64,000 nt of DNA from Acidimicrobiales bacterium (GTDB lineage: Bacteria; Actinomycetota; Acidimicrobiia; Acidimicrobiales; WLNW01): assembly GCA_039934635.1 (NCBI GenBank), contig JBDTLT010000009.1, forward strand, positions 6,697-70,696, read 5' to 3'. The notes under the pieces were generated by a model, which was given only the letters and a program-made list of their open reading frames with translations, did not search any database and was not told the origin of the DNA. A program made the translations under genes and the position numbers. This document shows, one piece after another, positions 16,938 to 60,588 of the stretch; within the stretch, counting starts at the first letter, position 1, and every line of letters begins with the position of its first letter.

Positions 16938-19256
16938 TCAGCGGCGCCACACGCGCAGGCGACCGTCGTCGCCCTCGCCGTTGATGGCGCGCCACACCTT
17001 TTCGGCGGTGCAGGGCATGTCGATGTGGCGCACCCCGAGGTGCGCGACTGCGTCGAGTACGGCGTTGTGCACCGCGGCGGTCGAACCGATCGTCCCTGAT
17101 TCGCCGATGCCCTTTGCGCCGAGCGGGTTGATGTGCGTCGGCGTGACCGTGTGATCGAGGGTGAACGACGGCAATTCGGCCGCGCTCACAAACGCGTAGT
17201 CGGCGAGGTTGCTCGTCAGCAGGTTGCCGAACTCGTCGTAGACGACTTCTTCGAGCAATGCCTGTGCCGCGCCCTGTGCGATGCCACCGTGCACCTGACC
17301 GTCGGCGAGCAACGGATTGATGATGGTGCCGCAATCATCGACGGCCGTGTGATCGATGAGCGTCACCTGACCGGTGTCGCGGTCGATGTCGACCACGGCG
17401 ACGTGCGCGCCGAACGGGAACGTCGAGTCGGGTCGCTCCCAGTCGATTTCGACGAACAGGCCGGTGCGCAAACCGTCGTCTTGTGGCGAAGCCGCAGCGT
17501 GCGCCTGCGCCTGCGCGTGTGAGGCGGCCTGCGCCCACGTGACGCGCTGTGAAGGCACGCCGGCCACGGCAAAACCACTGGCGTCGTGCACGATGTCGAC
17601 CGCGGCGGCCTCGAGTATGTCCGCCGCGAGCAGCTTGGCCTTTTCGACGACCTGCCCGCAGGCCACGTGGATGGCGGTTCCGCCCACTTGCACCGAACGC
17701 GACGAGTAGGTGCCGACGCCGCGAGCGACCTTGTCGGTGTCGCCGTCGATGATGGTGATGTCGGCGAAGGGAATGCCCAACGCGTCCGCTGCGATCTGGC
17801 TGTAGGTCGTCTTGTGACCCTGACCGTGCGAAAACGTTCCGACTTTGATGGTGGCCTTGCCGTCGGCATCGATCTCGACGTCGGCGAACTCGGTCGGTCC
17901 CGCGCCGGCAGTGACCTCGACGTAGACCGCCACGCCGACGCCAAGGAGGTGGCGGTCGTCGCGGGCGCGTCGCTCGGCTTGCTCACGTCGGCGCTCGGCA
18001 TAACCCGAGAGCGTGAGCACACGATCGAGCGCCGCGTGATAGTCGCCGGTGTCGTACACCGCGCCGGTCGGTGTTGTGTAAGGGAACCGGTCTTTGGCGA
18101 TGAAGTTGCGCCGACGGATCTCGATCGGATCAAGTTCGAGCTCGCCGGCGAGCACGTCGAGGGCCCGTTCCACGAGACACGCGGCTTCGGGGCGACCGGC
18201 ACCACGATACGCAGTCGGCGGCGCGGTGTTCGTGGCGACTGCGATCGCCGACGATGTCGCGCGCGGCACGGCGTAGACACCCGCGAGCATGCGTCCGGTC
18301 AACGTCACCAGGTACGCATTGACCGCGGGGTAGGCACCACCATCGCCGAGCAGATCGGCGTGGATCGCGGTCAAGATGCCGTCGCGCGTTGCCGCCATGC
18401 GTACGCGTTGTCGTTGGCCGCGGCCATGGACCGCCAACATGTTCTCGGTTCGCGTCTGACGCCACCGCACGGGGCGTTGCAGTTGGCGGGCCAACGAGCA
18501 CGCGATGACGTACTCGGCTTCGGGGACCGACTTCGCGCCGAACCCGCCACCGACCGCGGGTGCGATCACGTGCACCTTGTCCTTCGCCAGCCCGAGCAAC
18601 GACGCGAGACCGTCGCGTACCGCGTGCGGTGACTGCGTCGACACGTAGACGGTGAGTTGGTCGCCGTCGGGGATCGCGAGGATGTTGTTCGATTCGAGGG
18701 GCGCCACCGCGACCCGCTGGTTGTCGAACCACACGTCGACGACGATGTCGGCGCCCTCAGTGAGATCGGCGGGCTCGAACTCGCCCAACCGCAAAACCTC
18801 ATTGGAGGCGAGGTCGGCGAAGAGCCTCGGCGCGTCGCTTTCGATCGCCCGCTCGACATCGACCACGGCGTCGAGTGGCTCGTAGTCGACGACTACGGCT
18901 TCGACCGCGTCGACCGCCAACGTTTGCGACTCGGCCGCCACGACCGCGATGGGTTCACCGATGAAACGGGTGAATCCATTGGCGAGCGGCGGACGAAGCG
19001 CCGCCGCGGGTACCGGCACCGGAGAAAATCCGGGGATGAACGACACGTCGTCGTAGAGGAGCACTGCGTGCACACCGGCCATCTCGCGGGCGGCGTCGAC
19101 ATCGACGGACACGAGGCGGGCGTGCGCCACGTTGGAACGTACGAACGCCAACTCGAGGGCGGGGGTCTCGGTGACGATGTCGCCGACATAGCGCGCTGCA
19201 CCGCGCACGAGTTGAGGATCTTCGATACGACGGATGCGTTGTCCGATGAGCGCCAT
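16938..19256 (-). CDS. Molybdopterin-dependent oxidoreductase, xanthine dehydrogenase/CoxL-like large subunit (form-II type loop AYRGAGR)
   Basis: [26 protein letters not shown] is followed by ...[14 protein letters not shown]...[13 protein letters not shown]. The start is placed at the ATG at 19256; a GTG at 19277 is an alternative. Confidence 0.88.
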
Positions 19257-19306
19257 GAACCCATGGTCGCACACCACCCACGCGTGGTGGGTACTGGCCT
19301 TCTGCG

Positions 19307-36839: not shown

Positions 36840-36962
36840 AGTGACCTCCGACCCTAGTCACGGTCACCCGGGGCTTTGACGATTGGGCCCATCATCACGA
36901 GCCCGTCGATCGCGCCAGTAGCTGTACGATCGACGGTGCCCGCCAGCCGACGAGGGGACCCA

Positions 36963-38186
36963 ATGGCCTCATTCCCTGAAGTACCCAAGATCATTTCGGT
37001 CGACGATCACGTCGTCGAGCCGCCCGATCTGTGGACCAACCGCCTCCCGGCGAAGTACCAGGACCGCGCCCCTCGCATCGTGCGCGAAAAGTGCACGATG
37101 AAGATGGTCGGCGGCGTGTTCACGTTCGAGCGCAACGTGCCCGACGGTGATTGGTGCGATGTGTGGCTCTACGACGATCTCGTCTACCCGTTCCCCAAGC
37201 TGTCTGCGGCGAGTGGTTTCGCCAATCTCGACAACGAACCGGTCACGTTCGACCAGATCCGGCCGGGCGGTTGGAAGCAGAAGGAACGACTCGAAGACAT
37301 GGACGCCAATCACGTCCAAGCGTCGATCAACTTCCCCAACGTATTGCCACGCTTTTGCGGGCAAGCGTTCCTCGAGCGCCAAGACAAAGAGCTGGCGCTC
37401 TTGTGCGTCCAGGCGTACAACGACTGGACGATCGACGAGTGGTGCGCGGGCGCGGGTCACGGTCGTTTGATCCCGCTGACGATCATTCCCTTGTGGGATC
37501 CGCATTTGGCCGCCAAAGAGATTCACCGCTGCGCCGACAAAGGCAGCCATGCGATCACGTTCTCCGAAAATCCGTACCACCTCGGGCTGCCGTCGGTGCA
37601 CGACAAAGATCGTTTCTGGGACCCGATGTTCCAGGCGTGTGTCGAAACCGACACGGTCGTCAACATGCACATCGGTTCGTCGTCCAAGATGCCGTCGACG
37701 TCACCTGACTCTCCGTTCATCGTGAGCTCGATCCTCACGTTCCAAAACGCCATGGGATCGATGATCGACTACCTCATGTCCGGGGTGTTCCAGCGCTTCC
37801 CCGAGCTGCGCATTGCGTACAGCGAGGGCCAGGTCGGCTGGGTGCCTTACGTGCTCGAGCGGGCCGACAAGTTGTGGCACGAGCGCGGCGACACGAGCTT
37901 CGGCAGCGACCTACCCGCACCGCCGTCGACGTACGTCAAGGACCACATCTGGTTCTGCATCTTCGACGACGACACCGGCTTGCGTAACCGCAACCAGATC
38001 GGCATGGACCAGATCACGTTCGAAGTCGACTTCCCGCACGCCGATTCGACGTTCCCGCACACCTTGAAGGTGGCCGAGGACATCGTGGCCCGGGCCAAGC
38101 TCAACAAGACCGAGACGCAAAAGCTGTTCCGCGGCAACGCCATCAAGCTCTACCACCTCGACAAGTACTACGGCATCAAGAAGTAG
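36963..38186 (+). CDS. Amidohydrolase-2 (ACMSD-like metal-dependent hydrolase/decarboxylase) family protein, paralog 1
   Basis: I trimmed the ORF to the ATG at 36963. IISVDDHVVEPPDLWTNRLPAKY and ...FEVDFPHADSTFP are present. It is closely similar to 43516..44712. Confidence 0.85.
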   Translation: MASFPEVPKIISVDDHVVEPPDLWTNRLPAKYQDRAPRIVREKCTMKMVGGVFTFERNVPDGDWCDVWLYDDLVYPFPKLSAASGFANLDNEPVTFDQIRPGGWKQKERLEDMDANHVQASINFPNVLPRFCGQAFLERQDKELALLCVQAYNDWTIDEWCAGAGHGRLIPLTIIPLWDPHLAAKEIHRCADKGSHAITFSENPYHLGLPSVHDKDRFWDPMFQACVETDTVVNMHIGSSSKMPSTSPDSPFIVSSILTFQNAMGSMIDYLMSGVFQRFPELRIAYSEGQVGWVPYVLERADKLWHERGDTSFGSDLPAPPSTYVKDHIWFCIFDDDTGLRNRNQIGMDQITFEVDFPHADSTFPHTLKVAEDIVARAKLNKTETQKLFRGNAIKLYHLDKYYGIKK

Positions 38187-38799: not shown

Positions 38800-39651
38800 T
38801 CAGGTCTGCACGTGCTCGAAGCCGAATCGGCCTTTGATACACAGGTTTCCGTGCGTGATGTCGTGATCGTGCGGTGACGTCACCTTCACGATGCGGTTGT
38901 CCTGCACGTGCAGCGTCAGCGTGCAACCAACACCGCAATACGGGCAGATGGTGTCGGTGCTGGTTTGGCGCGCCTCGTCCCACGTGCCCGCGGCGCGCAT
39001 CTCGAATTCGGAGGTCGGCATCAGCGCGCCCGTAGGGCACACCGCGATGCAGTTACCGCAATAGACACAGGCCGAGTCGGTCAGCGCGACGTCCCACTCG
39101 GTCGAAATACGCGCATCGAAGCCGCGCCCGGCGACGCCGATCGCGAACGTGTTCTGCCATTGCTCGCCGCACGCGTCGACGCACTGGTAACACAAGATGC
39201 ACTTTGCGTAGTCACGAACGTACAGCGCGTTGTCGATCTTGACCGGCTGCTCGACGGTGGCCCGCTCGCCAAAGCGTTCGGGCTGCGCGCCGTATTCGGT
39301 CATCCAGCGATCGATGTTGGGCGCGATCGACAGGTCAGTCGCGCTCGCCAGGAACTCGAGGACCATGCGCCGGGAATGGCGCGTGCGCTCGGTGGCGGTC
39401 TGCACGACCATGCCGGCCTCCACGGGTCGCGAACACGAGGGCACCAGCGCGCGCGACCCCTCGACCTCGACCACGCACACGCGGCAGGCATTCTTCGGTG
39501 TCAGCGTGTCGCCATAACACAGCGTCGGGATGTCGCGCCCGGCCGATCGGCACGCGTCGAGCACGGTCGAGCCATCGGGGACGCGCTGGGTTTCGCCGTC
39601 GACGGTGATCTCGATCAACCGGCGCGGCGCGGCGACCGGTTGCTCGGTCAT
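38800..39651 (-). CDS. Formate dehydrogenase Fe-S module: NuoG-like N-terminal [2Fe-2S] plus 2x[4Fe-4S] plus the Molybdop_Fe4S4 domain, encoded as a separate polypeptide
   Basis: The 2Fe-2S motif is TLCYG...NACRVCVVEV. The ferredoxin motifs are CILCYQCVDAC and CVYCGNCIAVCP. The product ends just after the MopB Fe4S4 motif (CPYCGVGC...CIKGRFGFEHVQT*). Its ATG overlaps the NuoEF stop (ATGA). Confidence 0.85.
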   Translation of the reverse strand: MTEQPVAAPRRLIEITVDGETQRVPDGSTVLDACRSAGRDIPTLCYGDTLTPKNACRVCVVEVEGSRALVPSCSRPVEAGMVVQTATERTRHSRRMVLEFLASATDLSIAPNIDRWMTEYGAQPERFGERATVEQPVKIDNALYVRDYAKCILCYQCVDACGEQWQNTFAIGVAGRGFDARISTEWDVALTDSACVYCGNCIAVCPTGALMPTSEFEMRAAGTWDEARQTSTDTICPYCGVGCTLTLHVQDNRIVKVTSPHDHDITHGNLCIKGRFGFEHVQT

Positions 39652-41492
39652 TGCCGCCGCCGGAACGGCTCGAACTTCACCATCGCGGACTCGATCGCAC
39701 TGCTGGCAGTCTGGCCGAGACCACAGATGGATGCGTCGCGCATGGCCTGCCCGATGTCGGCGAGCAGGGCCAACTCGGTGTCGACCGAGCCGCGGGGCTG
39801 ACCGGCCGCGAGCCGGGCGAGCAATTCATCCTGGCGCACTGCGCCGACGCGGCACGGCACGCATTGCCCGCACGATTCGTCGCGGAAGAACTCGGCGATG
39901 CGCCGCAGAAATGCCACCAGATCGACGGTGTCGTCGAGCACGAGTACGACACCCGAACCGAGCGCGGCGGACGCCGCACGCGTGCCTTCGAATGTGAGCG
40001 CGACATCGATCTCGTCGGCCCGCACGAACGTGCCGGCCGCGCCGCCGAGCAACACGCATTGCAGCGCCCGACCGCTGCGTACCCCGCCCGCCATCTCGAG
40101 TAGTTCGCGCAGCGACACACCGAATTCGACCTCGTACACGCCCGGCAGGGCCACGCAACCCGATACGCAGAACAGCTTGGTTCCGTTCGAGCCATCGGTA
40201 CCAGTGGCGGCGAAGGCAGAGGCGCCGCGCTCGAGTATGGGCAACACGTTGACGAGCGTCTCGACATTGTTGACCACGGTCGGTACGCCGAAGAGGCCGG
40301 CATCGGTCGGGTACGGAGGCTTGTTGCGGGGTTCACCGCGATAGCCCTCGATCGAGTTGAAGATCGCCGTCTCCTCGCCGCAGATGTAGGCGCCCGCCCC
40401 GCGCCGGATCTCGATATCGAACGAGAACCCGTGCCCGTCGACGTCGTCACCCAACCATCCGGCGGCGCGGGCGGTGGCGATGGCGTGGTCGAGCCGTTCC
40501 CACGCGAGCGGGTATTCGCCCCGCAGGTAGATGTAACCCCGAGCGCTGCCCGTGGCGTAGCCGGCGATCGTGAGCGCGTCGATCACGGCGAAGGGATCGC
40601 CCTCCATGAGCACGCGATCTTTGAACGTTCCCGGCTCGCTTTCGTCGGCGTTGCACACGACGAAGTGCGGTTGGCGTTCGTGCTCGCGAACGGCCTGCCA
40701 CTTGCGGCCGGTGGGAAACGCCGCCCCGCCGCGCCCGACGAGCCCACTGTCGAGCACCTCGCGCACGACGCCCTCCGCGCCGAGCTCGAAGGCTCGTTGC
40801 ACCGCGCGCCGGCCGCCGTTGGCCGTGTACTCGTCGATGCTGGCGGGATCGACGACGCCGATCCTGCGTAACAACACCAGGCCCTCGGTATCGCGTTGGG
40901 GCACGCTCGCCGCGTGCGCCCACTGAGGCGCGACCGCGCCGTTCATCGAGACACGGATCGCGTCGGCGTCGACGAACGGCAGCGGCGCTTCGTACGGCGG
41001 GTCACCGGCGTGGATCACCAGTGCCGCGGGTGCCCGCTCGCACAACCCGAGGCAAGGGCTCGGGTGCCAACTGCTCATCGTGCGCGCCCCGGCGGGCGGT
41101 TCGCCCGCACGGAGCTGATCGACGATGGTGTCGGCGCCACTCAGTTTGCAGGCGAGATCGGTGCAAAGGTGCACGACGCGCGCGGGGCTCGGTTCGAGCG
41201 AGAACAATCCGTAGAACGACGCGACGCCGTACGCATCGGCCGGCGCGATCGAAAGGCGCCGGCACACGTAGCCGATGCCTCCTTGGCTGATCCAGCCGAC
41301 ACGCGATTGCAGCGCGTGCAACGCAGGCAACAAGAGGTCACGACCGTGGATGCGGTCATCCCGCGAGAACGACGCCCGCAGGTCACGCTCACTGCGCACG
41401 CCTCCCTCCCACGACGACGCCGACCGACCCAGCACCGCGTCGACCGCCGCTCGCTCGGCGTCGGTCGCTTCGGCCTCGAGGACGTGCTCCAT
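39648..41492 (-). CDS. NuoE-like [2Fe-2S] / NuoF-like (FMN, NADH, [4Fe-4S]) fusion; diaphorase module of an NAD-linked formate dehydrogenase
   Basis: The NuoE-like part reads LLPALHALQSRVGWIS...VHLCTDLAC. The NuoF part reads GLVGRGGAAFPTGRKW...ESCGQCVPCRVG. Its ATG directly follows the TAG of the upstream gene. Confidence 0.88.
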   Translation of the reverse strand: MEHVLEAEATDAERAAVDAVLGRSASSWEGGVRSERDLRASFSRDDRIHGRDLLLPALHALQSRVGWISQGGIGYVCRRLSIAPADAYGVASFYGLFSLEPSPARVVHLCTDLACKLSGADTIVDQLRAGEPPAGARTMSSWHPSPCLGLCERAPAALVIHAGDPPYEAPLPFVDADAIRVSMNGAVAPQWAHAASVPQRDTEGLVLLRRIGVVDPASIDEYTANGGRRAVQRAFELGAEGVVREVLDSGLVGRGGAAFPTGRKWQAVREHERQPHFVVCNADESEPGTFKDRVLMEGDPFAVIDALTIAGYATGSARGYIYLRGEYPLAWERLDHAIATARAAGWLGDDVDGHGFSFDIEIRRGAGAYICGEETAIFNSIEGYRGEPRNKPPYPTDAGLFGVPTVVNNVETLVNVLPILERGASAFAATGTDGSNGTKLFCVSGCVALPGVYEVEFGVSLRELLEMAGGVRSGRALQCVLLGGAAGTFVRADEIDVALTFEGTRAASAALGSGVVLVLDDTVDLVAFLRRIAEFFRDESCGQCVPCRVGAVRQDELLARLAAGQPRGSVDTELALLADIGQAMRDASICGLGQTASSAIESAMVKFEPFRRRQ

Positions 41493-43415
41493 CTACAACC
41501 TCTCCAACCGCACGGCGGTCGCCTTGAACTCGGCAGTACCGGAACGCGGATCCACAGCATCGATCGTGAGCACATTGGTGTCCACATCGTCCGAGAAGTG
41601 AAACGTCATGAAGGCGAGCCCGGCGCGCAACGCGTGGTCGACACGCGCCGGCGCCACCACTGCACCTCTACGCGAGACGACCCTTACGGATTGGCCATCG
41701 GCGATGTCGAGGCGACGCGCGTCCTCAGGCGAAAGGTCGAGGGTTTCGCCGAGCCGTAACGGCGACGCGTAGCTGCCCGACTGCACGCCGGTGTTGTAGC
41801 TGTCGAGGCGGCGACCGGTGGTCAGCCGCAGCGGGAAGTCTTCGGTGAGCTCGTCGACGGGAAGGTCGTGGGTCACCACATTGAACGGAGCGGGCCGGCC
41901 TCTACGCGTGGGATCGTCATCCCACAGCCGCCCGTGCAGGAACGACGGCTCGATTGTGTCGTCGTCGTAACACGGCCACTGAATGCCGTCCAACGCCTCG
42001 ATGCGCGCGTACGACATGCCCGCGTGAATCGGCGACAACGAGCGCACCTCGTTCCAGATGGCTTCGGCGCGCTGGCGGGGCTCGTCACCGTAACGCCAGT
42101 CGCGGCCCATTCGCGACGCGAGTTGCAACAGGACTTCGATGTCGTCGCGTGCGTTACCGGGTGGGTCGAGCGCCTTGCGCACGCGCTGTACGCGTCGCTC
42201 GCTGTTCGTCACCGTGCCTTCGCTCTCGCACCATGCTGCGGCCGCAGGAAAGACGACATCGGCCATCTCCGCGGTCTTGGTCAAGAAGATGTCCTGCACC
42301 ACCAGAGTGTCGAGGCCTTCGAGTAAGTGTCGCGCGTGGGTCACGTCGGCTTCGCTCTGCGCCGGATTCTCGCCGATGACGTACAGCGCGGTGAGGTCGC
42401 CCCGACCCATTGCCTCGAACATCTGCGTCAACGTCCAACCTGGTTTCGGCGGCACGGTGCACTCCCAGGCCTGGTCGAACTGGCCACGCAGATCCGCGTC
42501 GGTGATGTCTTGAAAGCCGGGCAGCCGCGGGGGGATGGCGCCCATGTCGCCGCCGCCCTGCACGTTGTTCTGACCGCGTAGCGGGTTGAGGCCCGAGCCG
42601 TAGCGACCGACATGGCCGCAGAGCAGCGCCAGGTTGATGAGCGCCAACACGTTCTCGACCGCGTTGTGGTGTTCGGTGATGCCGAGCGTCCAGCACAGTT
42701 GCGCGCGTGGCGCGCGGGCGTACGCGTGCGCAACCTGGCGAATCACTTCGGCGGGCACGCCGGTCTCCATCTCGCCCCGCTCGAGCGTCCACGACTCGAC
42801 CGAGCGCGCGTACGCATCGAAGTCGACGGTGGCTCGCTCGATGAAGTCACGGTGCGCAAGGCCTTGGTGGATGATCTCGCGCGCCATCGTGTTGGCCAGT
42901 GCAATGTCGGTCCCGACGTCGAGCCCGACCCAGATGTCGGCGAACTGCGCGGTCGCGGTACGCCGCGGGTCGACGACGAACAGCTGCGCGCCGTTGCGCA
43001 CCCCCGCCAGCACGTGATGGAAGAAGATCGGATGCGCCTCGCGCGCGTTGGATCCCCACAACACGATCACGTCGGTCGCTTCGATCTCTTTGTAGGACGA
43101 CGTTCCGCCACCCACTCCGAACACTGCCGCCAGACCGACGACGCTGGGAGCGTGTCAAGTTCGATTGCACGAATCGATGTTGTTCGTCCCCATCACCGCC
43201 CGGGCGAACTTCTGCGCGAGAAAGTTCATCTCGTTGGTGGCCTTCGAACAGCTGAACATGCCGAAGGCCTGCGGGCCTTTGGTGTCGAGCGCTCGGCGAA
43301 ACCCGGCAGCGGCGCGGTCGAGTGCCTCATCCCAGGTTGCCGGGCGCAGCGCGCCGTTGTCGCGCACCAGCGGCTCGGTCAGCCGTGAGTAGACCCGTGC
43401 CGGCCGTCGCGCCAT
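41493..43415 (-). CDS. Formate dehydrogenase catalytic (MopB, bis-MGD) subunit with selenocysteine at TGA 43155-43157; lacks its own N-terminal Fe-S domains; split by the ORF caller
   Basis: ORFs 43155..43604 and 41493..43124 are in the same frame. The joined sequence reads ...MGTNNIDSCNRT-U-HAPSVVGLAAVFGVGGGTSSY..., matching the FdhF-type C.R.UH.PSV active site. The C-terminus has a molybdopterin dinucleotide-binding domain. The start at the ATG at 43415 is approximate. Confidence 0.82.
43126..43142 (-). promoter_or_regulatory. SECIS-like apical stem-loop for the FDH UGA
   Basis: The mRNA reads GUCGUC-GGUCU-GGCGGC: a 6-bp stem with 2 G.U pairs and a GGUCU loop. It begins 12 nt after the UGA. 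As I recall it, the loop sequence GGUCU is the same as in the E. coli fdhF SECIS. Confidence 0.6.
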
Positions 43416-43515: not shown

Positions 43516-44712
43516 ATGGCCGACATCGAGATCCCACCGATCATCAGCGTGGACGACCACGTCGTCGAACCCCCCGACCTCTGGACGAGCCGGCTGCCCG
43601 CCAAGTACAGAGATGTCGGCCCCCACGTGGTCTACAAACCGACCGGCAAACCGATCCTCGTCGGTGGCGGCTATATCGAAGAGCCGGGTACCGAAGGCGA
43701 CCCGATCGCCTGGTGGTTCTTCGAGGACCACAAGTATTCGGTCAAGCGGCTCATCGCTGCGGCGGGGTATTCGCCCGACGAGATCGGCCTCGAGGGCGTG
43801 ACGTTCGAGGACATGCGCCCCGGCTGTTGGCAGCCAAAGGCGCGACTGGCCGACATGGACGTCAACAATGTCGAAGCGTCGCTGTGCTTTCCCAACTACC
43901 CCCGCTTCTGCGGACAGCTCTTCAAGAACGCCAAGGACAAAGACCTCGCGCTGCTGTGCGTACAGGCCTACAACGACTGGATGGTCGACGAATGGTGCGG
44001 CGACTCCAACGGTCGCCTCATCCCACTGTGCCTGATCCCGTTGTGGGATGTCGACCTCGCCGTCACGGAGATCTACCGCAATGCGGCGCGCGGCGTCCGT
44101 GCGGTGGCCTTCAGCGAATGCCCGGCCTGGATCGACCTGCCGTCGATCCACTCGGGCTACTGGGAGCCGTTCTGGGCCGCGTGCGCCGACACCGGCACCG
44201 TGCTGTGCATGCACATCGGCTCCGGCACCAAGACGATGACCACCAGTTCGGATGCACCCGAGGGCGTGACGGCTACCGGCATCTTCACCAACAGCGCGAT
44301 GTCGATGATCGACTTCTTGTTCTCGGGTGTATTGGTGCGCCATCCCGATCTCAAGCTGTTGTACGCCGAAGCGCAGATCGGTTGGATCCCCTACGTCGTC
44401 GAACGCATCGACGACATCTGGAACACCCATCGTGGATGGGCCCACGTGCGGGACAACACTCCCGAGCCACCCTCGACCTACTACTACCGGCAGATGCACA
44501 GCTGCTTCTTCAAGGACTCCGTCGGGCTCGAGCTGCTCGATCGAGTCGGTGTCGACAACATCATGTTCGAGACCGACTACCCGCACCAGGACGGCACATG
44601 GCCCAACTCCAAAGAAGTCGCGCAAAAGCTCTTCGGCCATCTCGACGCCGCCACCACACGCAAGATCGTCCGGGGTAACGCGGTGCGATTGTTCGGTCTC
44701 GACGCGAAATAA
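43516..44712 (+). CDS. Amidohydrolase-2 family protein, paralog 2
   Basis: IISVDDHVVEPPDLWTSRLPAKYRD and ...FETDYPHQDGTWP are present. It is collinear with 36963..38186. Confidence 0.87.
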   Translation: MADIEIPPIISVDDHVVEPPDLWTSRLPAKYRDVGPHVVYKPTGKPILVGGGYIEEPGTEGDPIAWWFFEDHKYSVKRLIAAAGYSPDEIGLEGVTFEDMRPGCWQPKARLADMDVNNVEASLCFPNYPRFCGQLFKNAKDKDLALLCVQAYNDWMVDEWCGDSNGRLIPLCLIPLWDVDLAVTEIYRNAARGVRAVAFSECPAWIDLPSIHSGYWEPFWAACADTGTVLCMHIGSGTKTMTTSSDAPEGVTATGIFTNSAMSMIDFLFSGVLVRHPDLKLLYAEAQIGWIPYVVERIDDIWNTHRGWAHVRDNTPEPPSTYYYRQMHSCFFKDSVGLELLDRVGVDNIMFETDYPHQDGTWPNSKEVAQKLFGHLDAATTRKIVRGNAVRLFGLDAK

Positions 44713-46348: not shown

Positions 46349-47116
46349 TCAGCCCGTCATCAATCTTGAAAAGGCGGCGCGTTGCGCGGCGATGCGGGTC
46401 GGGTCGGCTGGCACCGCGCTGCTTCGTTCGAGCACCACGCGGGCGATCTTGCCGCCCCCCACGGTGAATGCCTCGCCGGTGATCGCACACTGCTCGTGGC
46501 ACAGCCACGCCACTGCTGCCGCCGCCTCACCTGCCGGGGGCGCGGTGCTGCCCTCGCGCGCCAGGCGCGTCGAACCCCACGGCAACACGCAATTGAGGTG
46601 GATGCCGTGCGGCTCGCCTTCGATCGCGAGCGTCTTGGTCATCGCGAACACCGCGCCCTTGGCCGCGACATAGTGTGCGCGCCCGGCGATGCCGAAGATG
46701 CCGCCCGACGCCGTCGTCACGATGCGGCCGTAGTGGGCCGCCGTCATGAGAGACCACGCGGCCCGCACGACATGAAACGTGCTCGTGAGGTTGTGGCGCA
46801 ACGCGTCATCGAATTCAGATGTGGTCATCTCGGCGAAGTCGCGGTGCCACGAGACGCCGGCATTCGCAACGAGGACATCGATCGGGCCGGCTTGCTCGAT
46901 GACCGATCGAGCGCCGGCCTCGCTCGATATGTCCGCCGCGATGGCCATCACGCCGAGCTCCACCGCAGTTGCGTGGACCGCATCGTGATCGATGTCGTTG
47001 AGAATCACACGGGCACCGCGTGCGGCCAGTAGTTCGGCATAGGCGCGCCCGAGACCGCGCGCCGCGCCGGTGACGAGCGCGGCGCGGCCGTCGAAGCGCG
47101 GCTCGTCTTCGGTCAT
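46349..47116 (-). CDS. SDR-family oxidoreductase
   Basis: I trimmed the ORF to the ATG at 47116 (ATGA overlap with the upstream stop). VTGAARGLGRA, NAG and YVAAKGA (YxxxK) are present. Confidence 0.87.
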   Translation of the reverse strand: MTEDEPRFDGRAALVTGAARGLGRAYAELLAARGARVILNDIDHDAVHATAVELGVMAIAADISSEAGARSVIEQAGPIDVLVANAGVSWHRDFAEMTTSEFDDALRHNLTSTFHVVRAAWSLMTAAHYGRIVTTASGGIFGIAGRAHYVAAKGAVFAMTKTLAIEGEPHGIHLNCVLPWGSTRLAREGSTAPPAGEAAAAVAWLCHEQCAITGEAFTVGGGKIARVVLERSSAVPADPTRIAAQRAAFSRLMTG

Positions 47117-48246
47117 CGAGGATCGATCTGGTAGAGCAGCGCGGCGTTGTCGGTCGCGATGCGTTGCCGCGCCGTAGCATCGAGCAAGGCAGTGCGATCG
47201 GCGAACACTTCGCGTGAACGCGGGAACAGGCCTTCGCTGTGCGGATAGTCGGAGCCCCACAGGATGCGATCGCTGCCGACTGCCTGCGCGACCGCCGCGG
47301 CCGACGGATCTTCGCAGAACTGCGCCCAAACGTTGTTACGCACGAAGTCGCTCGGCAACGTGCCCGCCGCGAAACGGTGACCCTTGGTGGCCCGCTGCGT
47401 GTACGTGTAGTCCATGCGTTCGACGAAGAACGGCAGCCAACCCACTTCGTGTTCGGCGGAGACGATGCGCAGGCCGGGAAACCGCTCGAACACACCCGAG
47501 AAGATGATGTCGCCGAGTGCCTGGCGCACCCAATGGTCGGCGGTCGCGAAGGCGGTCTGCGCCGGCTTGGCCGATGCAGACTGCGCGCCCGGGATCACCG
47601 GCGCAGCTTGACGGTCGGGATTCGCCCGATAGGTGCCGATGTGCAACGACAACGGCACATCGAGCGCGGCCGCCACCGCCCACAGTCGATCGAACGACGG
47701 ATCCGCGTACGTGCGGCCCCCCGGGAGCCCGACAGGGATAAGCCCGGCCGCCAACCCGCGGAGCACCGCGCGCTCGAGCTCGGCTGCCGCGGTCTCGATG
47801 TCGTCGACGTTGAGCGCGGCCACGCCTCGCAGCCGTTGTGGCTGCGCGGCCGTGAACTCGGCCAACCAGTCGTTGTACGCCCGGCAGGTGGCGTCGACGA
47901 GCACGGTGTTGCGCACGGCGTAGTGCTGCATCTGCTGCGTGGGATAAAGGACCGATGCGGTCACGCCGTCGGTGAGGTTCTCGTCGACGTAAAGATCGGG
48001 GTCGTAGGCGCCGGCACGCACGTTCTCGAAGCGATCCGCCAGCACGAGGGCGTCGGGATCAGCGAAGCGAACGCCCGCCTGCGTGCCACCGGCGAACGAG
48101 TTCGTGCGATGGCCGTCCACATACCACCAGTCGTTGCCGTCGTCGTCGCGACGTACCTGTGGAGCACGCTCGCCCCACTCGTTCTGCAGCCGCTGGGTCC
48201 AGACATCGGGCGGCTCGATGACGTGCGAGTCAGCCGAGATCATCAC
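47113..48246 (-). CDS. Amidohydrolase-2 family protein, paralog 3 (more divergent)
   Basis: MMISADSHVIEPPDVWTQRL and ...WGSDYPHSEG are present. Confidence 0.85.
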   Translation of the reverse strand: MMISADSHVIEPPDVWTQRLQNEWGERAPQVRRDDDGNDWWYVDGHRTNSFAGGTQAGVRFADPDALVLADRFENVRAGAYDPDLYVDENLTDGVTASVLYPTQQMQHYAVRNTVLVDATCRAYNDWLAEFTAAQPQRLRGVAALNVDDIETAAAELERAVLRGLAAGLIPVGLPGGRTYADPSFDRLWAVAAALDVPLSLHIGTYRANPDRQAAPVIPGAQSASAKPAQTAFATADHWVRQALGDIIFSGVFERFPGLRIVSAEHEVGWLPFFVERMDYTYTQRATKGHRFAAGTLPSDFVRNNVWAQFCEDPSAAAVAQAVGSDRILWGSDYPHSEGLFPRSREVFADRTALLDATARQRIATDNAALLYQIDPR

Positions 48247-58332: not shown

Positions 58333-60588
58333 ATGAGCGGAAGCATTCTCGGTACGCGGGTCAAGCGGATCGAAGACCCGAAGATGCTCACGGCGGGCGG
58401 CAGCTACATCAACGATCTCCGCCTCGATCATGCGCTGTTCGTGACGTATGTGCGCTCGACGATGGCGCACGCGCGGCTGCGCTCGATCGATGTCGAAAAC
58501 GCCCGATCGGCCGATGGTGTCGTCGCCGTGTACACGTTCCCCGATCTCGCAATGCCGCCGTCGCCACCGATGATGCCGTTCATGAACCAGGCGATGCTGC
58601 GTCCGATGCTGGCGCACGAAACGGTGCGCTTCGTCGGCGAACCGATCGTGGCCATCCTGGCCGAGACCCGTCAGGCCGGTGTCGACGCGGCAGAGTTGGT
58701 GATGATCGACTACGACCCATTGCCGGTCGTCGTCGATCCTGAGGTTGCGTGCGCCGACGAGATGCTGCTCTTCCCCGAAGTCGGCACCAACATCGTGTGC
58801 GAGATCCCACTGGCAGGCCCCGATGACCTGTTCGCCGACTGCGAAGTGATCGTCGAAGCACGGATCATCAGCAACCGGTTGGCGCCGGCTCCGATGGAAC
58901 CACGCGTCGCGGCCGCGGACTGGGACGGCACGCGCCTCACGCAATGGGCGGCGGGTCAAGGCGTGTTCGGCGCGCAAGGCGGCATCGCCCGTCTCAATGG
59001 GCTCGACATCTCGCAGGTGCGCATCATCACGCCCGACGTCGGCGGATCCTTCGGCGCCAAAGGCGGCACGTCGCCCGAAGAACTGCTCGTTGGTTGGTTG
59101 TCGTGCAAACACAACCGGCCGGTGCGCTGGTTCGAGACCCGCACCGAGAACATGACCGCCATGGCGCACGGCCGGGCGCAGGTCCAATACGCAAAGCTCG
59201 GTGGCACTCGCGATGGTCGTTTCCTTGCGTACTCCCTCAAGGTGATTCAGGAAAGCGGCGGCTACCCGTCGCTCGGTGCGTTGCTCCCCAACTTCACGAA
59301 GTTGATGGCGTCGGGTACGTACGCAATCGAAAAGGTCGCAACCGAAGCGGTCACCGTGCTCACCAACACCACACCGGTCGGCGCTTACCGCGGGGCAGGC
59401 CGTCCCGAGGCAACCGCCGCGCTCGAGCGCGTCGTCGACATGTACGCCGTCGAGATCGGCATGGACCCGGGCGACTTGCGCCGGCGCAACGTGATCAATC
59501 CGGCGGCGTTCCCGTACACCACGCCCACCGGCGCGGCCTACGACAGCGGCGAGTATGCCGCGGCGATCGACCGCGTACTCGACGCGGCCGGCTATGCCGA
59601 CCTCCGCGCCGAACAACTCGCGCGCCGTCGCGCCGGTGATACCAAGATGCTCGGCATCGGTTTGGCGTCCTACGTCGAGGTCACCAACCCAATGGGCAGC
59701 GGCGAATGGGCGAGTTTCGAGGTGAAGAACGACGGCGGTGCGATCGTGCGCTCAGGGGTCTCGTCGCACGGCCAAGGGCTCGGCACCGCATTCGTGATGC
59801 TCGCGAGTGAGCGCACGGGCATTCCGATCGAGCGCATGGAATACCACCAGAGCGACACCGACGAGATCCCGCGCGGTGGCGGCACCGGTGGATCGCGTTC
59901 ACTGCAGGTCGGTGGCTCGGCAGTCGCGGGCGCGACCGATCTGGTCGTCGAGACCGCACGCAAGCTGGCGGCGGATCAACTCGAAGCCAACGTCGACGAT
60001 GTGGTACTCGATATCGACAACGGCAACTTCCATGTGGTCGGCACACCGGCGAAATCTGTCGGATGGGCCGAGATCGCGAGCGCACAGGACGCTCCCTTGG
60101 TCGAAGAGTTCGATTTCAAGCCAGGCGGTGCGACCTTCCCCTTCGGGGCGCACGTCGCCGTCGTCGAAGTCGACCGCGACACCGGCAATGTCACCGTGCA
60201 ACGACTGGTCGCGGTCGACGACTGCGGCGTCATCGTCAATCCGTTGCTCGCCGACGGTCAGGTGCACGGGGGTCTCGCGCAGGGCATCGCGCAAGCGCTC
60301 ATCGAAGAGGTGCGCTACGACGAGCTCGGCAATCCGCTCACCGCCAACTTCGCGGACTACGGCATCATCTCTGCGGCGGAACTGCCCTCGTTCGAACGGC
60401 ACCCGATGGAGACGCCGACACCGCGCAATCCGCTGGGGGCCAAGGGCATCGGCGAGTCGGGCACCATCGGCTCCACTCCTGCGGTGCAAAACGCGGTGAT
60501 CGACGCGCTGTCGCACCTGGGTGTCCGCCACCTCGACATGCCCTTCACCGCCGAGCGCGTGTGGCGCGCGATCAACTCGAACCCCTGA
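58333..60588 (+). CDS. Molybdopterin-dependent oxidoreductase, xanthine dehydrogenase/CoxL-like large subunit (form-II loop AYRGAGR)
   Basis: ILGTRVKRIEDPKMLTAGGSYIND, ...[14 protein letters not shown] and ...[13 protein letters not shown] are present. A GAAGGGGA SD precedes the ATG. Confidence 0.9.
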   Translation: MSGSILGTRVKRIEDPKMLTAGGSYINDLRLDHALFVTYVRSTMAHARLRSIDVENARSADGVVAVYTFPDLAMPPSPPMMPFMNQAMLRPMLAHETVRFVGEPIVAILAETRQAGVDAAELVMIDYDPLPVVVDPEVACADEMLLFPEVGTNIVCEIPLAGPDDLFADCEVIVEARIISNRLAPAPMEPRVAAADWDGTRLTQWAAGQGVFGAQGGIARLNGLDISQVRIITPDVGGSFGAKGGTSPEELLVGWLSCKHNRPVRWFETRTENMTAMAHGRAQVQYAKLGGTRDGRFLAYSLKVIQESGGYPSLGALLPNFTKLMASGTYAIEKVATEAVTVLTNTTPVGAYRGAGRPEATAALERVVDMYAVEIGMDPGDLRRRNVINPAAFPYTTPTGAAYDSGEYAAAIDRVLDAAGYADLRAEQLARRRAGDTKMLGIGLASYVEVTNPMGSGEWASFEVKNDGGAIVRSGVSSHGQGLGTAFVMLASERTGIPIERMEYHQSDTDEIPRGGGTGGSRSLQVGGSAVAGATDLVVETARKLAADQLEANVDDVVLDIDNGNFHVVGTPAKSVGWAEIASAQDAPLVEEFDFKPGGATFPFGAHVAVVEVDRDTGNVTVQRLVAVDDCGVIVNPLLADGQVHGGLAQGIAQALIEEVRYDELGNPLTANFADYGIISAAELPSFERHPMETPTPRNPLGAKGIGESGTIGSTPAVQNAVIDALSHLGVRHLDMPFTAERVWRAINSNP

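Follow-up and report, generated by a model that had tools for sequence, protein, structure and literature searches.

The soluble NAD+-linked formate dehydrogenases (FDHs) FdsGBA(D) of Rhodobacter capsulatus and Cupriavidus necator (PDB 6TGA, 6VW7) are composed of NuoE-like and NuoF-like modules, a NuoG-like Fe-S module, a Fe4S4 domain and a MopB catalytic domain. In these enzymes FdsA is one chain of 958 amino acids (aa), and in fused enzymes of this kind the Fe4S4 ligands and a CIKGR-type lysine share a chain with the pterin site. We analyzed a 64-kb stretch of DNA (hereafter the window) from an Acidimicrobiales bacterium (contig JBDTLT010000009.1), which carries the same modules in three genes. 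Here the counterpart of FdsA is divided into two chains, of which the catalytic one is encoded first, and the Fe4S4 ligands and the lysine are located on a separate Fe-S protein. Judged from their sequences, the three genes very probably encode a single soluble, cytoplasmic, NAD+-linked FDH of the FdsABG / Fdh1AB class, containing molybdenum or tungsten bound by a bis-pyranopterin guanine dinucleotide (bisPGD) cofactor, whose alpha subunit is produced as two polypeptides.

All three genes are located on the minus strand. The first (43415..41493; 640 codons including one for selenocysteine, Sec) encodes the MopB catalytic subunit of the FDH, as indicated by matches to Pfam, the NCBIfam model TIGR01591 and the PDB. 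Its product begins with MARRPARVYSRLTEPLVRDNG (translation) and contains the domains Molybdopterin (PF00384, residues 11-434, Pfam 5e-69) and Molydop_binding (PF01568, residues 529-633, Pfam 6e-27); Pfam detected no Fe4S4 domain in this protein. The second gene (41492..39648) encodes a diaphorase subunit of 614 aa, a NuoE-NuoF fusion (NuoEF) recognized by Pfam, NCBIfam (TIGR01959 nuoF_fam and nuoE_fam) and PDB matches, including the FDH beta subunits of C. necator, R. capsulatus and Methylorubrum extorquens. It comprises (i) 2Fe-2S_thioredx (PF01257, residues 51-159), (ii) Complex1_51K (PF01512, residues 247-416), (iii) SLBB (PF10531/PF22461) and (iv) NADH_4Fe-4S (PF10589, residues 528-609) domains assigned by Pfam, and the cysteine motifs CTDLAC...CLGLC and CGQCVPC are visible in its sequence. 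The third gene (39651..38800) encodes the Fe-S subunit (283 aa), in which Pfam identified a Fer2_4 [2Fe-2S] domain, a 2x[4Fe-4S] ferredoxin domain, with two CxxCxxCxxxC(P) ferredoxin-type 4Fe-4S motifs, and a Molybdop_Fe4S4 domain (PF04879; 38806..38961, minus strand; residues 231-282 of 283, profile positions 3-54/55). The latter carries the CPYCGVGC...C ligands and the CIKGR lysine, and the protein ends with ...CIKGRFGFEHVQT*.

The genes are tightly packed: the TAG stop codon of the MopB gene (41493-41495) lies directly next to the ATG of NuoEF (41490-41492), and the NuoEF stop codon overlaps the start of the Fe-S gene (ATGA). The Fe-S gene is followed, after 57 nt, by a GNAT acetyltransferase gene, and no MopB remnant is present downstream of it in any frame. 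A promoter/terminator scan revealed no promoter-like sites and one terminator-like site, on the plus strand inside the MopB gene, which is fewer than in shuffled sequences. This layout agrees with that proposed in the first-pass annotation, in which the catalytic part came first (41493-43415), starting at the post-Fe4S4 segment (borne out by Pfam, the translation and TIGR01591), a NuoE/NuoF fusion came second, its ATG abutted by the TAG (Pfam domains and junction sequence), and the Fe-S module came last, as a 283-aa protein of its own that starts at the ATGA overlap and ends after the Fe4S4 domain (open reading frame, ORF, and Pfam). The location of the Fe-S/Fe4S4 part approximately 2 kb downstream of the catalytic domain is likewise upheld by the gene coordinates, Pfam and the alignment with FdsA. 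Thus the coordinates, junctions and domains of that annotation were correct; it overlooked the Sec codon with its selenocysteine insertion sequence (SECIS) hairpin, the loss of an A4-type cluster, the commonness of this arrangement in Actinomycetota, and the three-subunit NAD-FDH label that some annotation sources already give it.

The two parts of the alpha subunit fit together without a significant gap. TIGR01591 (Fdh-alpha) matches the MopB protein from profile position 52 to 671/672 (640.9 bits), and positions 1-49 of the same profile are matched by the C-terminal 49 residues of the Fe-S subunit (52.3 bits); the break is between profile positions 49 and 52. The Fe-S protein aligns to residues 24-302 and the MopB protein to residues 307-931 of R. 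capsulatus FdsA (PDB 6tg9_A), and the two proteins cover, respectively, residues 9-277 and 281-901 of P0128, a fused metagenomic relative of 911 aa. The Fe-S protein also aligns to residues 64-339 of M. extorquens Fdh1A, and corresponds to the N-terminal third of an FdsA-type alpha subunit in detached form. In a fused relative, the unbroken junction segment is equivalent to ...CIKGRFGFEHVQT* plus MARRPARVYSRLTEPLVRDNG.... The two TIGR01591 halves and the end-to-end alignment on fused FdsA-type proteins confirm the original proposal of a split at the Fe4S4/MopB junction. The concern that the MopB protein might belong to a non-FDH clade proved unfounded: it is a member of the FDH clade, with the Sec/Cys-His pair, the RGQNNVQG motif with its conserved Arg (shown in translation as NPLRGQNNVQGGGD), the TIGR01591 match, and best PDB matches that are FDHs (7qv7_S, 1aa6_A and 6tg9_A). 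Among the features of the class, the operon has a NuoF-like subunit for flavin mononucleotide (FMN), NAD(H) and a 4Fe-4S cluster, and a NuoE-like 2Fe-2S module; it lacks the in-chain Fe4S4 domain of TIGR01591 and a NuoG/HoxU-like extension covalently joined to the catalytic domain.

A MopB-like protein of 620 aa (P0258, 35% identity) also starts exactly at the DRLQKPL junction, without a Fe4S4 domain. In P0258 the stretch AARFYYAPG replaces the Cys/Sec-His of the active site, and this distant protein may be a paralogue that is non-catalytic or has a different function, or its start may have been mis-called.

In a scan of one genome per species, at least 505 stretches were found to encode relatives of these proteins, and the best 80 loci were used to examine gene order. 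These loci come from Acidimicrobiia, from many Streptomyces, and from Streptosporangiales such as Nonomuraea, Herbidospora, Thermopolyspora and Planomonospora. According to tblastn, the MopB gene is followed by NuoEF and then by the Fe-S gene in about 60 of the 80 species loci; most of the others contained too little upstream DNA for the order to show. Since the window derives from a metagenome-assembled genome (MAG), the permuted order could in principle have been created during assembly. The probability of such an artefact is negligible, because the same order occurs in the isolates Thermopolyspora flexuosa (5.2-Mb contig) and Nonomuraea dietziae (8.9-Mb contig), in the complete chromosome of Streptomyces flavusporus (CP176503), and in independent Acidimicrobiales MAGs from different studies; the earlier worry about an assembly rearrangement is dispelled by these isolate and complete genomes. 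The Fe-S protein of the window is 100% identical to an NCBI protein labelled "MAG: Acidimicrobiales bacterium". The top 120 homologues of this protein all stand alone, with lengths of 275-392 aa (275-323 aa in 119 cases), and have the Fe4S4 domain at their C-terminal end. Past the last Fe4S4 cysteine, the Fe-S ORF continues for 11-25 residues in 88 of 90 family members, and for 51-52 residues in the other two, which have low-complexity tails. None of the 90 ORFs runs on into a MopB domain, contrary to what might have been expected if the split had been a sequencing error. The layout is therefore real and widespread, and unremarked rather than rare.

The N. dietziae assemblies encode a pair of Fe-S paralogues, of 279-280 aa and 277 aa, within a single contig (P0062/P0091, P0066/P0092, P0095/P0120), which suggests that this species has two copies of the operon.

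A detailed inspection of the MopB gene revealed an in-frame TGA codon (43155..43157, minus strand) at the Sec/Cys-His position of the active site, in the context GTNNIDSCNRT-[TGA]-HAPSVVGL (translation). In enzymes of this type the position is occupied by the Sec or Cys that ligates Mo or W, with the catalytic His next to it. As a consequence, the mechanical ORF list presents the catalytic gene as two pieces, of 149 aa (of which 86 aa are real) and 543 aa; these pieces are an artefact of ORF calling and do not mark a lesion. Among the related loci retrieved, the same codon is TGA in 26 and TGC/TGT in 45. The TGA carriers are mostly Acidimicrobiia-type MAGs, accompanied by one Streptosporangiaceae MAG and by a few MAGs whose label is no more precise than Actinomycetes, Actinomycetota or "bacterium"; the Cys carriers are Streptomyces and cultured Streptosporangiales.

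Immediately 3' of the codon, a putative SECIS hairpin (43114..43151, minus strand) is composed of a lower stem, a 6-bp upper stem (43142-43137/43131-43126) and a GGUCU apical loop (43136-43132), its upper part lying 16-32 nt from the U of UGA. The SECIS of Escherichia coli fdhF has GGUCUG at the same distance from its UGA. Alignment folding of 20 TGA-bearing sequences with RNAalifold yielded 10 pairs, none of them broken; one pair alternates between GC and CG (13:7) and two vary through G-U. All six upper-stem pairs are formed in 19 of 19 unique Sec sequences and in 1 of 46 unique Cys sequences, and the loop-forming Gly codon is GGT in 19/19 and 0/46 of them, respectively. The SECIS assignment is based on this comparative evidence (covariation and the contrast between Sec and Cys sequences) and not on minimum free energy folding, which for the region alone gave z = 0.3, an uninformative value in GC-rich sequence. 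At gathering thresholds Rfam found nothing in the whole window, and a permissive scan gave a weak full-length match to SECIS_3 (43160..43099) whose 14.4 bits are well under the gathering score, so that membership of SECIS_3 is not claimed. The UGA is predicted to be read through as Sec because of its active-site position, the TGA/Cys alternation among orthologues, the conserved covarying hairpin, and purifying selection upstream, where the 86 codons 5' of the TGA have a ratio of nonsynonymous to synonymous substitution rates (dN/dS) of 0.07-0.14.

The Streptosporangiaceae MAG mentioned above (L024, 2374-2420) combines TGA with an intact SECIS (GUCGCC-GGUCU-GGCGAC), and all loci of cultured Streptosporangiales carry Cys; this comparison implies Sec/Cys switching inside the order.

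A catalytic gene cut in two at a TGA, together with alpha-subunit domains in a non-canonical order, could also be taken for a decaying or rearranged FDH operon with a broken alpha gene, a premature stop codon and a displaced fragment. In close comparisons of the window genes with two related loci (L010 and L012), dN/dS was 0.10 for MopB, 0.12-0.20 for NuoEF and 0.08-0.11 for the Fe-S gene. All three genes are thus under purifying selection, with low values on both sides of the TGA. Since, in addition, the TGA occupies the Sec position and is accompanied by a covarying SECIS, and the same architecture is maintained in dozens of species, many with Cys instead of Sec, decay is highly improbable, and the sequence data favor the first-pass view of a functional arrangement. 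A JGI contig (L009, 6239-10004) has MopB (86+416+133 aa) and NuoEF broken into several ORFs beyond the Sec codon; with synteny and identity preserved in other respects, sequencing frameshifts are the probable cause of these breaks.

Several observations weigh against the assignment of the three products to one NAD+-linked enzyme. The MopB protein scores below the curated cut-off of TIGR01591 (640.9 vs 666.25 bits), and full-text literature searches found no characterized or structurally studied member of the family. In four loci (L045, L050, L059 and L085), whose labels read Actinomycetota, Acidimicrobiales, Acidimicrobium sp. and Ferrithrix thermotolerans, the MopB gene is separated from NuoEF by approximately 2 kb, at about 2.1-4.2 kb in the coordinates of each locus. 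The gap in L050 is filled by two reverse-strand genes, one encoding a 288-aa protein and the other a protein resembling zinc-type alcohol dehydrogenases, which makes MopB a separate transcription unit there. One Acidimicrobiia MAG (L031, 6010-6846) has a Fe-S gene (278 aa) alone, with no MopB or NuoEF within 6 kb on either side; with the inserted genes, this orphan indicates that co-transcription is not obligatory. Genes for Sec decoding and cofactor sulfuration are also missing from the window. An FdhD gene directly follows the Fe-S gene in the Streptomyces and Streptosporangiales loci, and none was found in the 64-kb window or in the Acidimicrobiia loci retrieved; in the genome of the window it may be located elsewhere. 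No tRNA was detected in the window, nor any sel domain among the 33 window proteins scanned. Without sel genes, tRNA-Sec and fdhD in the window, Sec decoding and cofactor sulfuration depend on loci outside it.

The separated and orphan genes, and the resemblance of the Fe-S protein to HoxU (model NF005745, residues 14-212), would fit a scheme in which MopB and NuoEF/Fe-S do not form one obligate enzyme, the latter acting as a HoxFU-like general diaphorase and MopB working with another partner or alone. We regard this as unlikely, with a small chance of being correct. MopB has no Fe-S cluster and so needs an external proximal one, an FDH-type Fe4S4 domain has no role without a pterin subunit, and the three genes co-occur in nearly all loci, with junctions that mostly overlap or abut.

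We infer the formation of a single complex, its electron path, NAD+ as the acceptor, and Mo or W as the metal. In the proposed three-gene enzyme, UGA at 43155-43157 would be decoded as Sec with the aid of the hairpin just 3' of it, and the 640-aa MopB subunit would supply the pterin cofactor and the Sec-His active site, without any Fe-S cluster. The 283-aa protein would donate, in trans, the proximal [4Fe-4S] cluster (with the CxKG lysine), two ferredoxin-type [4Fe-4S] clusters as well as one [2Fe-2S] cluster, and NuoE-NuoF would contribute a [4Fe-4S] cluster, FMN, the NAD(H) site and an off-path [2Fe-2S] cluster. Electrons would then pass from formate to Mo/W, to the proximal 4Fe-4S cluster on the other polypeptide, through two further 4Fe-4S clusters and the 2Fe-2S cluster to the 4Fe-4S cluster of NuoF, and via FMN to NAD+. 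With the proximal cluster on the Fe-S protein, the first electron step out of the pterin would cross a subunit interface. The CxKG lysine, which in E. coli FDH-H is implicated in the pterin-to-cluster step, is located on the small subunit.

In the R. capsulatus FDH (RcFDH) electrons follow the path bis-molybdopterin guanine dinucleotide - A1 - A2 - A3 - A5 - FdsB cluster - FMN (PMC7171172). By homology, the 283-aa protein would provide A1 (Fe4S4 domain), A2 and A3 (ferredoxin-type) and A5 ([2Fe-2S]). The only cluster for which this protein has no counterpart is the N5/A4-type [4Fe-4S] cluster: its His/Cys3 ligands are missing from the Fe-S protein of the window (39270-39400, residues ~85-125), which has LEFLASATDLSIAPNIDRW where RcFdsA has ISDHPLDCLTCAANGDCELQD, and the motif occurs in none of the 90 family Fe-S ORFs (L001-L090). 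Since A4 is off-pathway in RcFDH, where it is situated at the FdsA dimer interface (PMC7171172), its loss should not break the electron chain, and by analogy hints at a different oligomeric state.

With regard to the acceptor, among the best PDB matches of NuoEF are some to subunits of enzymes that are bifurcating or multimeric (8oh5_B, 9bov_B, HydB), as might be expected of an electron-bifurcating, ferredoxin-coupled or NADP-specific enzyme, with a different or an additional acceptor. A 2x[4Fe-4S] ferredoxin domain is present at the C-terminus of the HydB-type bifurcating subunits of HydABC. For the NuoF part of the window protein, Pfam finds a single NADH_4Fe-4S domain and no such C-terminal domain or other extra ferredoxin domain, and the hosts are aerobic actinobacteria; an acceptor other than NAD+ is therefore improbable.

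The split may also have a purpose beyond neutral fission. It is conceivable, though rather doubtful, that the separate Fe4S4 polypeptide serves as an assembly or maturation device: the cluster-free MopB protein would first take up bisPGD, sulfurated via FdhD, and then dock onto a pre-assembled NuoEF/Fe-S diaphorase. If this were true, the catalytic module would be exchangeable and independently regulated, as hinted at by lineages whose MopB gene stands apart from the other two genes or has no linkage to them, and the enzyme would be the first of the MopB superfamily in which the pterin-to-cluster step takes place across a subunit interface.

To examine the origin of the split, outgroups were sought among 1.8 billion cluster representatives. 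Outside the family, the closest proteins share 39-44% identity and have the Fe4S4 domain in-chain; they are either FdsA-like (~900 aa, matched from ~residue 350) or FdhF-like (~680 aa, from ~residue 135). The cluster nearest to MopB, at 50% identity, represents a large Bacillales family of Sec-containing, FdhF-like proteins with SCNRT-U-HAPS and an in-chain Fe4S4 domain, and the closest fused relative examined (P0139) is encoded in a NuoE, NuoF, FdsA operon with an overlapping F/A junction. The split is derived, because the nearest outgroups retain the Fe4S4 domain in the same chain. Relative to NuoE, NuoF, FdsA operons, the order E-F-(NuoG-like/Fe4S4) is collinear and only the MopB module has been shifted to the 5' end. 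The NuoF-to-Fe-S junction would thus preserve the ancestral overlapping arrangement, and the operon can be read as a cyclic permutation. This order could have arisen by simple translocation, or else by a tandem duplication with subsequent terminal deletions; both would yield it.

A mosaic origin, with MopB from an FdhF-type and the Fe-S subunit from an FdsA-type enzyme after complementary domain loss, was also considered. In comparisons of single sequences, MopB is 51-62% identical to the Bacillales sister vs 40-54% to fused FdsA-type proteins, and the Fe4S4 domain is 40-44% identical to the sister vs 50-57% to P0128/P0139. This signal was removed by group means of the Fe4S4 domain (up to 25 sequences per group: family-sister 45.9%, family-FdsA-like 44.4%, sister-FdsA-like 36.6%), and the mosaic scheme was rejected. 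Genes of the Bacillales sister family (L093, 598-2655) are routinely cut at the UGA, into ~137 aa and ~539 aa. NCBI lists two N-terminal fragments from Ammoniphilus oxalaticus (P0313 and P0334) under the name [quoted passage not shown], apparently a mis-annotation.

The window as a whole is a catabolic region of a soil-type Acidimicrobiales, with genes for MFS transporters, P450s, CoA-transferases, enoyl-CoA hydratases and a 2-oxoacid dehydrogenase E1/E2 pair. The FDH operon is flanked by genes for Amidohydro_2 proteins of the ACMSD/decarboxylase type (36876-38186, plus strand; 43516-44712, plus strand; 47113-48246, minus strand), an arrangement whose synteny extends to L007 and L010; it is conceivable that the operon is linked to a formate-producing route of aromatic or heterocycle catabolism. 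Two large subunits of Mo hydroxylases of the xanthine-dehydrogenase/aldehyde-oxidase family (16938-19277, minus strand; 58333-60588, plus strand) indicate that the organism invests heavily in Mo cofactors.

The T. flexuosa orthologues are named in some public annotation as catalytic, flavoprotein and iron-sulfur subunits of NAD-dependent formate dehydrogenase, and the NCBI label of the small subunit is only "2Fe-2S iron-sulfur cluster-binding protein". In the full-text literature we found no description of the split or of the permuted order. The nearest statement is the mention of a "three-subunit type" Fdh1A/B/C in genomes of methylotrophic Mycobacterium (2015; PMC5023230), which may belong to the present family. 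Because ORF callers split the Sec gene and the Fe-S subunit bears generic labels, formate oxidation in Acidimicrobiia and Streptomyces is easily under-called. Wherever the MopB-superfamily enzymes compared here contain a proximal 4Fe-4S cluster, it is carried by the pterin-binding chain, at its N-terminus. The present family, which is large and actinobacterial, has this cluster on a second polypeptide, together with the lysine that is thought to connect it to the pterin. The layout amounts to a natural fragment-complementation experiment. It makes the family a test system for the assembly and maturation of metal-dependent FDHs, and may offer a modular design for engineered CO2-reducing enzymes. 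Furthermore, aerobic actinobacteria of soil and freshwater have the enzyme in matched Sec and Cys forms, which could reveal what selenium buys an oxygen-exposed FDH.

Among the known systems, FdsGBA(D) shares with the family, besides its modules, an FdhD/FdsC-type gene, which adjoins the operon in many relatives of the window locus. The window enzyme differs from it by the fusion of NuoE with NuoF, the loss of the A4 His/Cys3 cluster, and Sec in place of Cys at the active site, and no FdsD was identified at the window locus. The tungsten enzyme Fdh1AB of M. extorquens (PDB 7E5Z, 7VW6) likewise has a beta subunit of the NuoE+NuoF type, a polypeptide of 572 aa. That this subunit is a single chain was reportedly established by Laukel and co-workers in 2003. 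Fdh1A of M. extorquens differs from the window proteins in being a Cys enzyme formed by a single 989-aa chain with the Fe4S4 domain in-chain.

The best sequence matches to the MopB part are found in FdhF-type enzymes (E. coli FDH-H, 1AA6; T. kivui HDCR FdhF, 7QV7; and the Bacillales family of L093, which shares the unusual SCNRT-U-HAPS and is 50-62% identical to the window MopB). These proteins have the Fe4S4 domain at their own N-terminus, and no NuoEF or NuoG-like partners were present at the locus examined. A precedent for distributing a catalytic unit of the MopB superfamily over several polypeptides is FwdB/FwdD of formylmethanofuran dehydrogenase. In a PDB search the match to FwdB is confined to the front of the MopB domain, and its replaced C-terminus was remarked on in the R. 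capsulatus paper (PMC7171172). That split detaches the C-terminal Molydop_binding domain and not the N-terminal Fe4S4 domain, and FwdB keeps its own cluster. Finally, HoxU of the NAD+-reducing hydrogenases (HoxFU) is likewise a stand-alone protein resembling the N-terminal Fe-S part of NuoG, encoded beside a NuoF-type subunit. Unlike the Fe-S protein of the window, HoxU lacks a Molybdop_Fe4S4 domain, and the enzyme that it serves is a NiFe hydrogenase.

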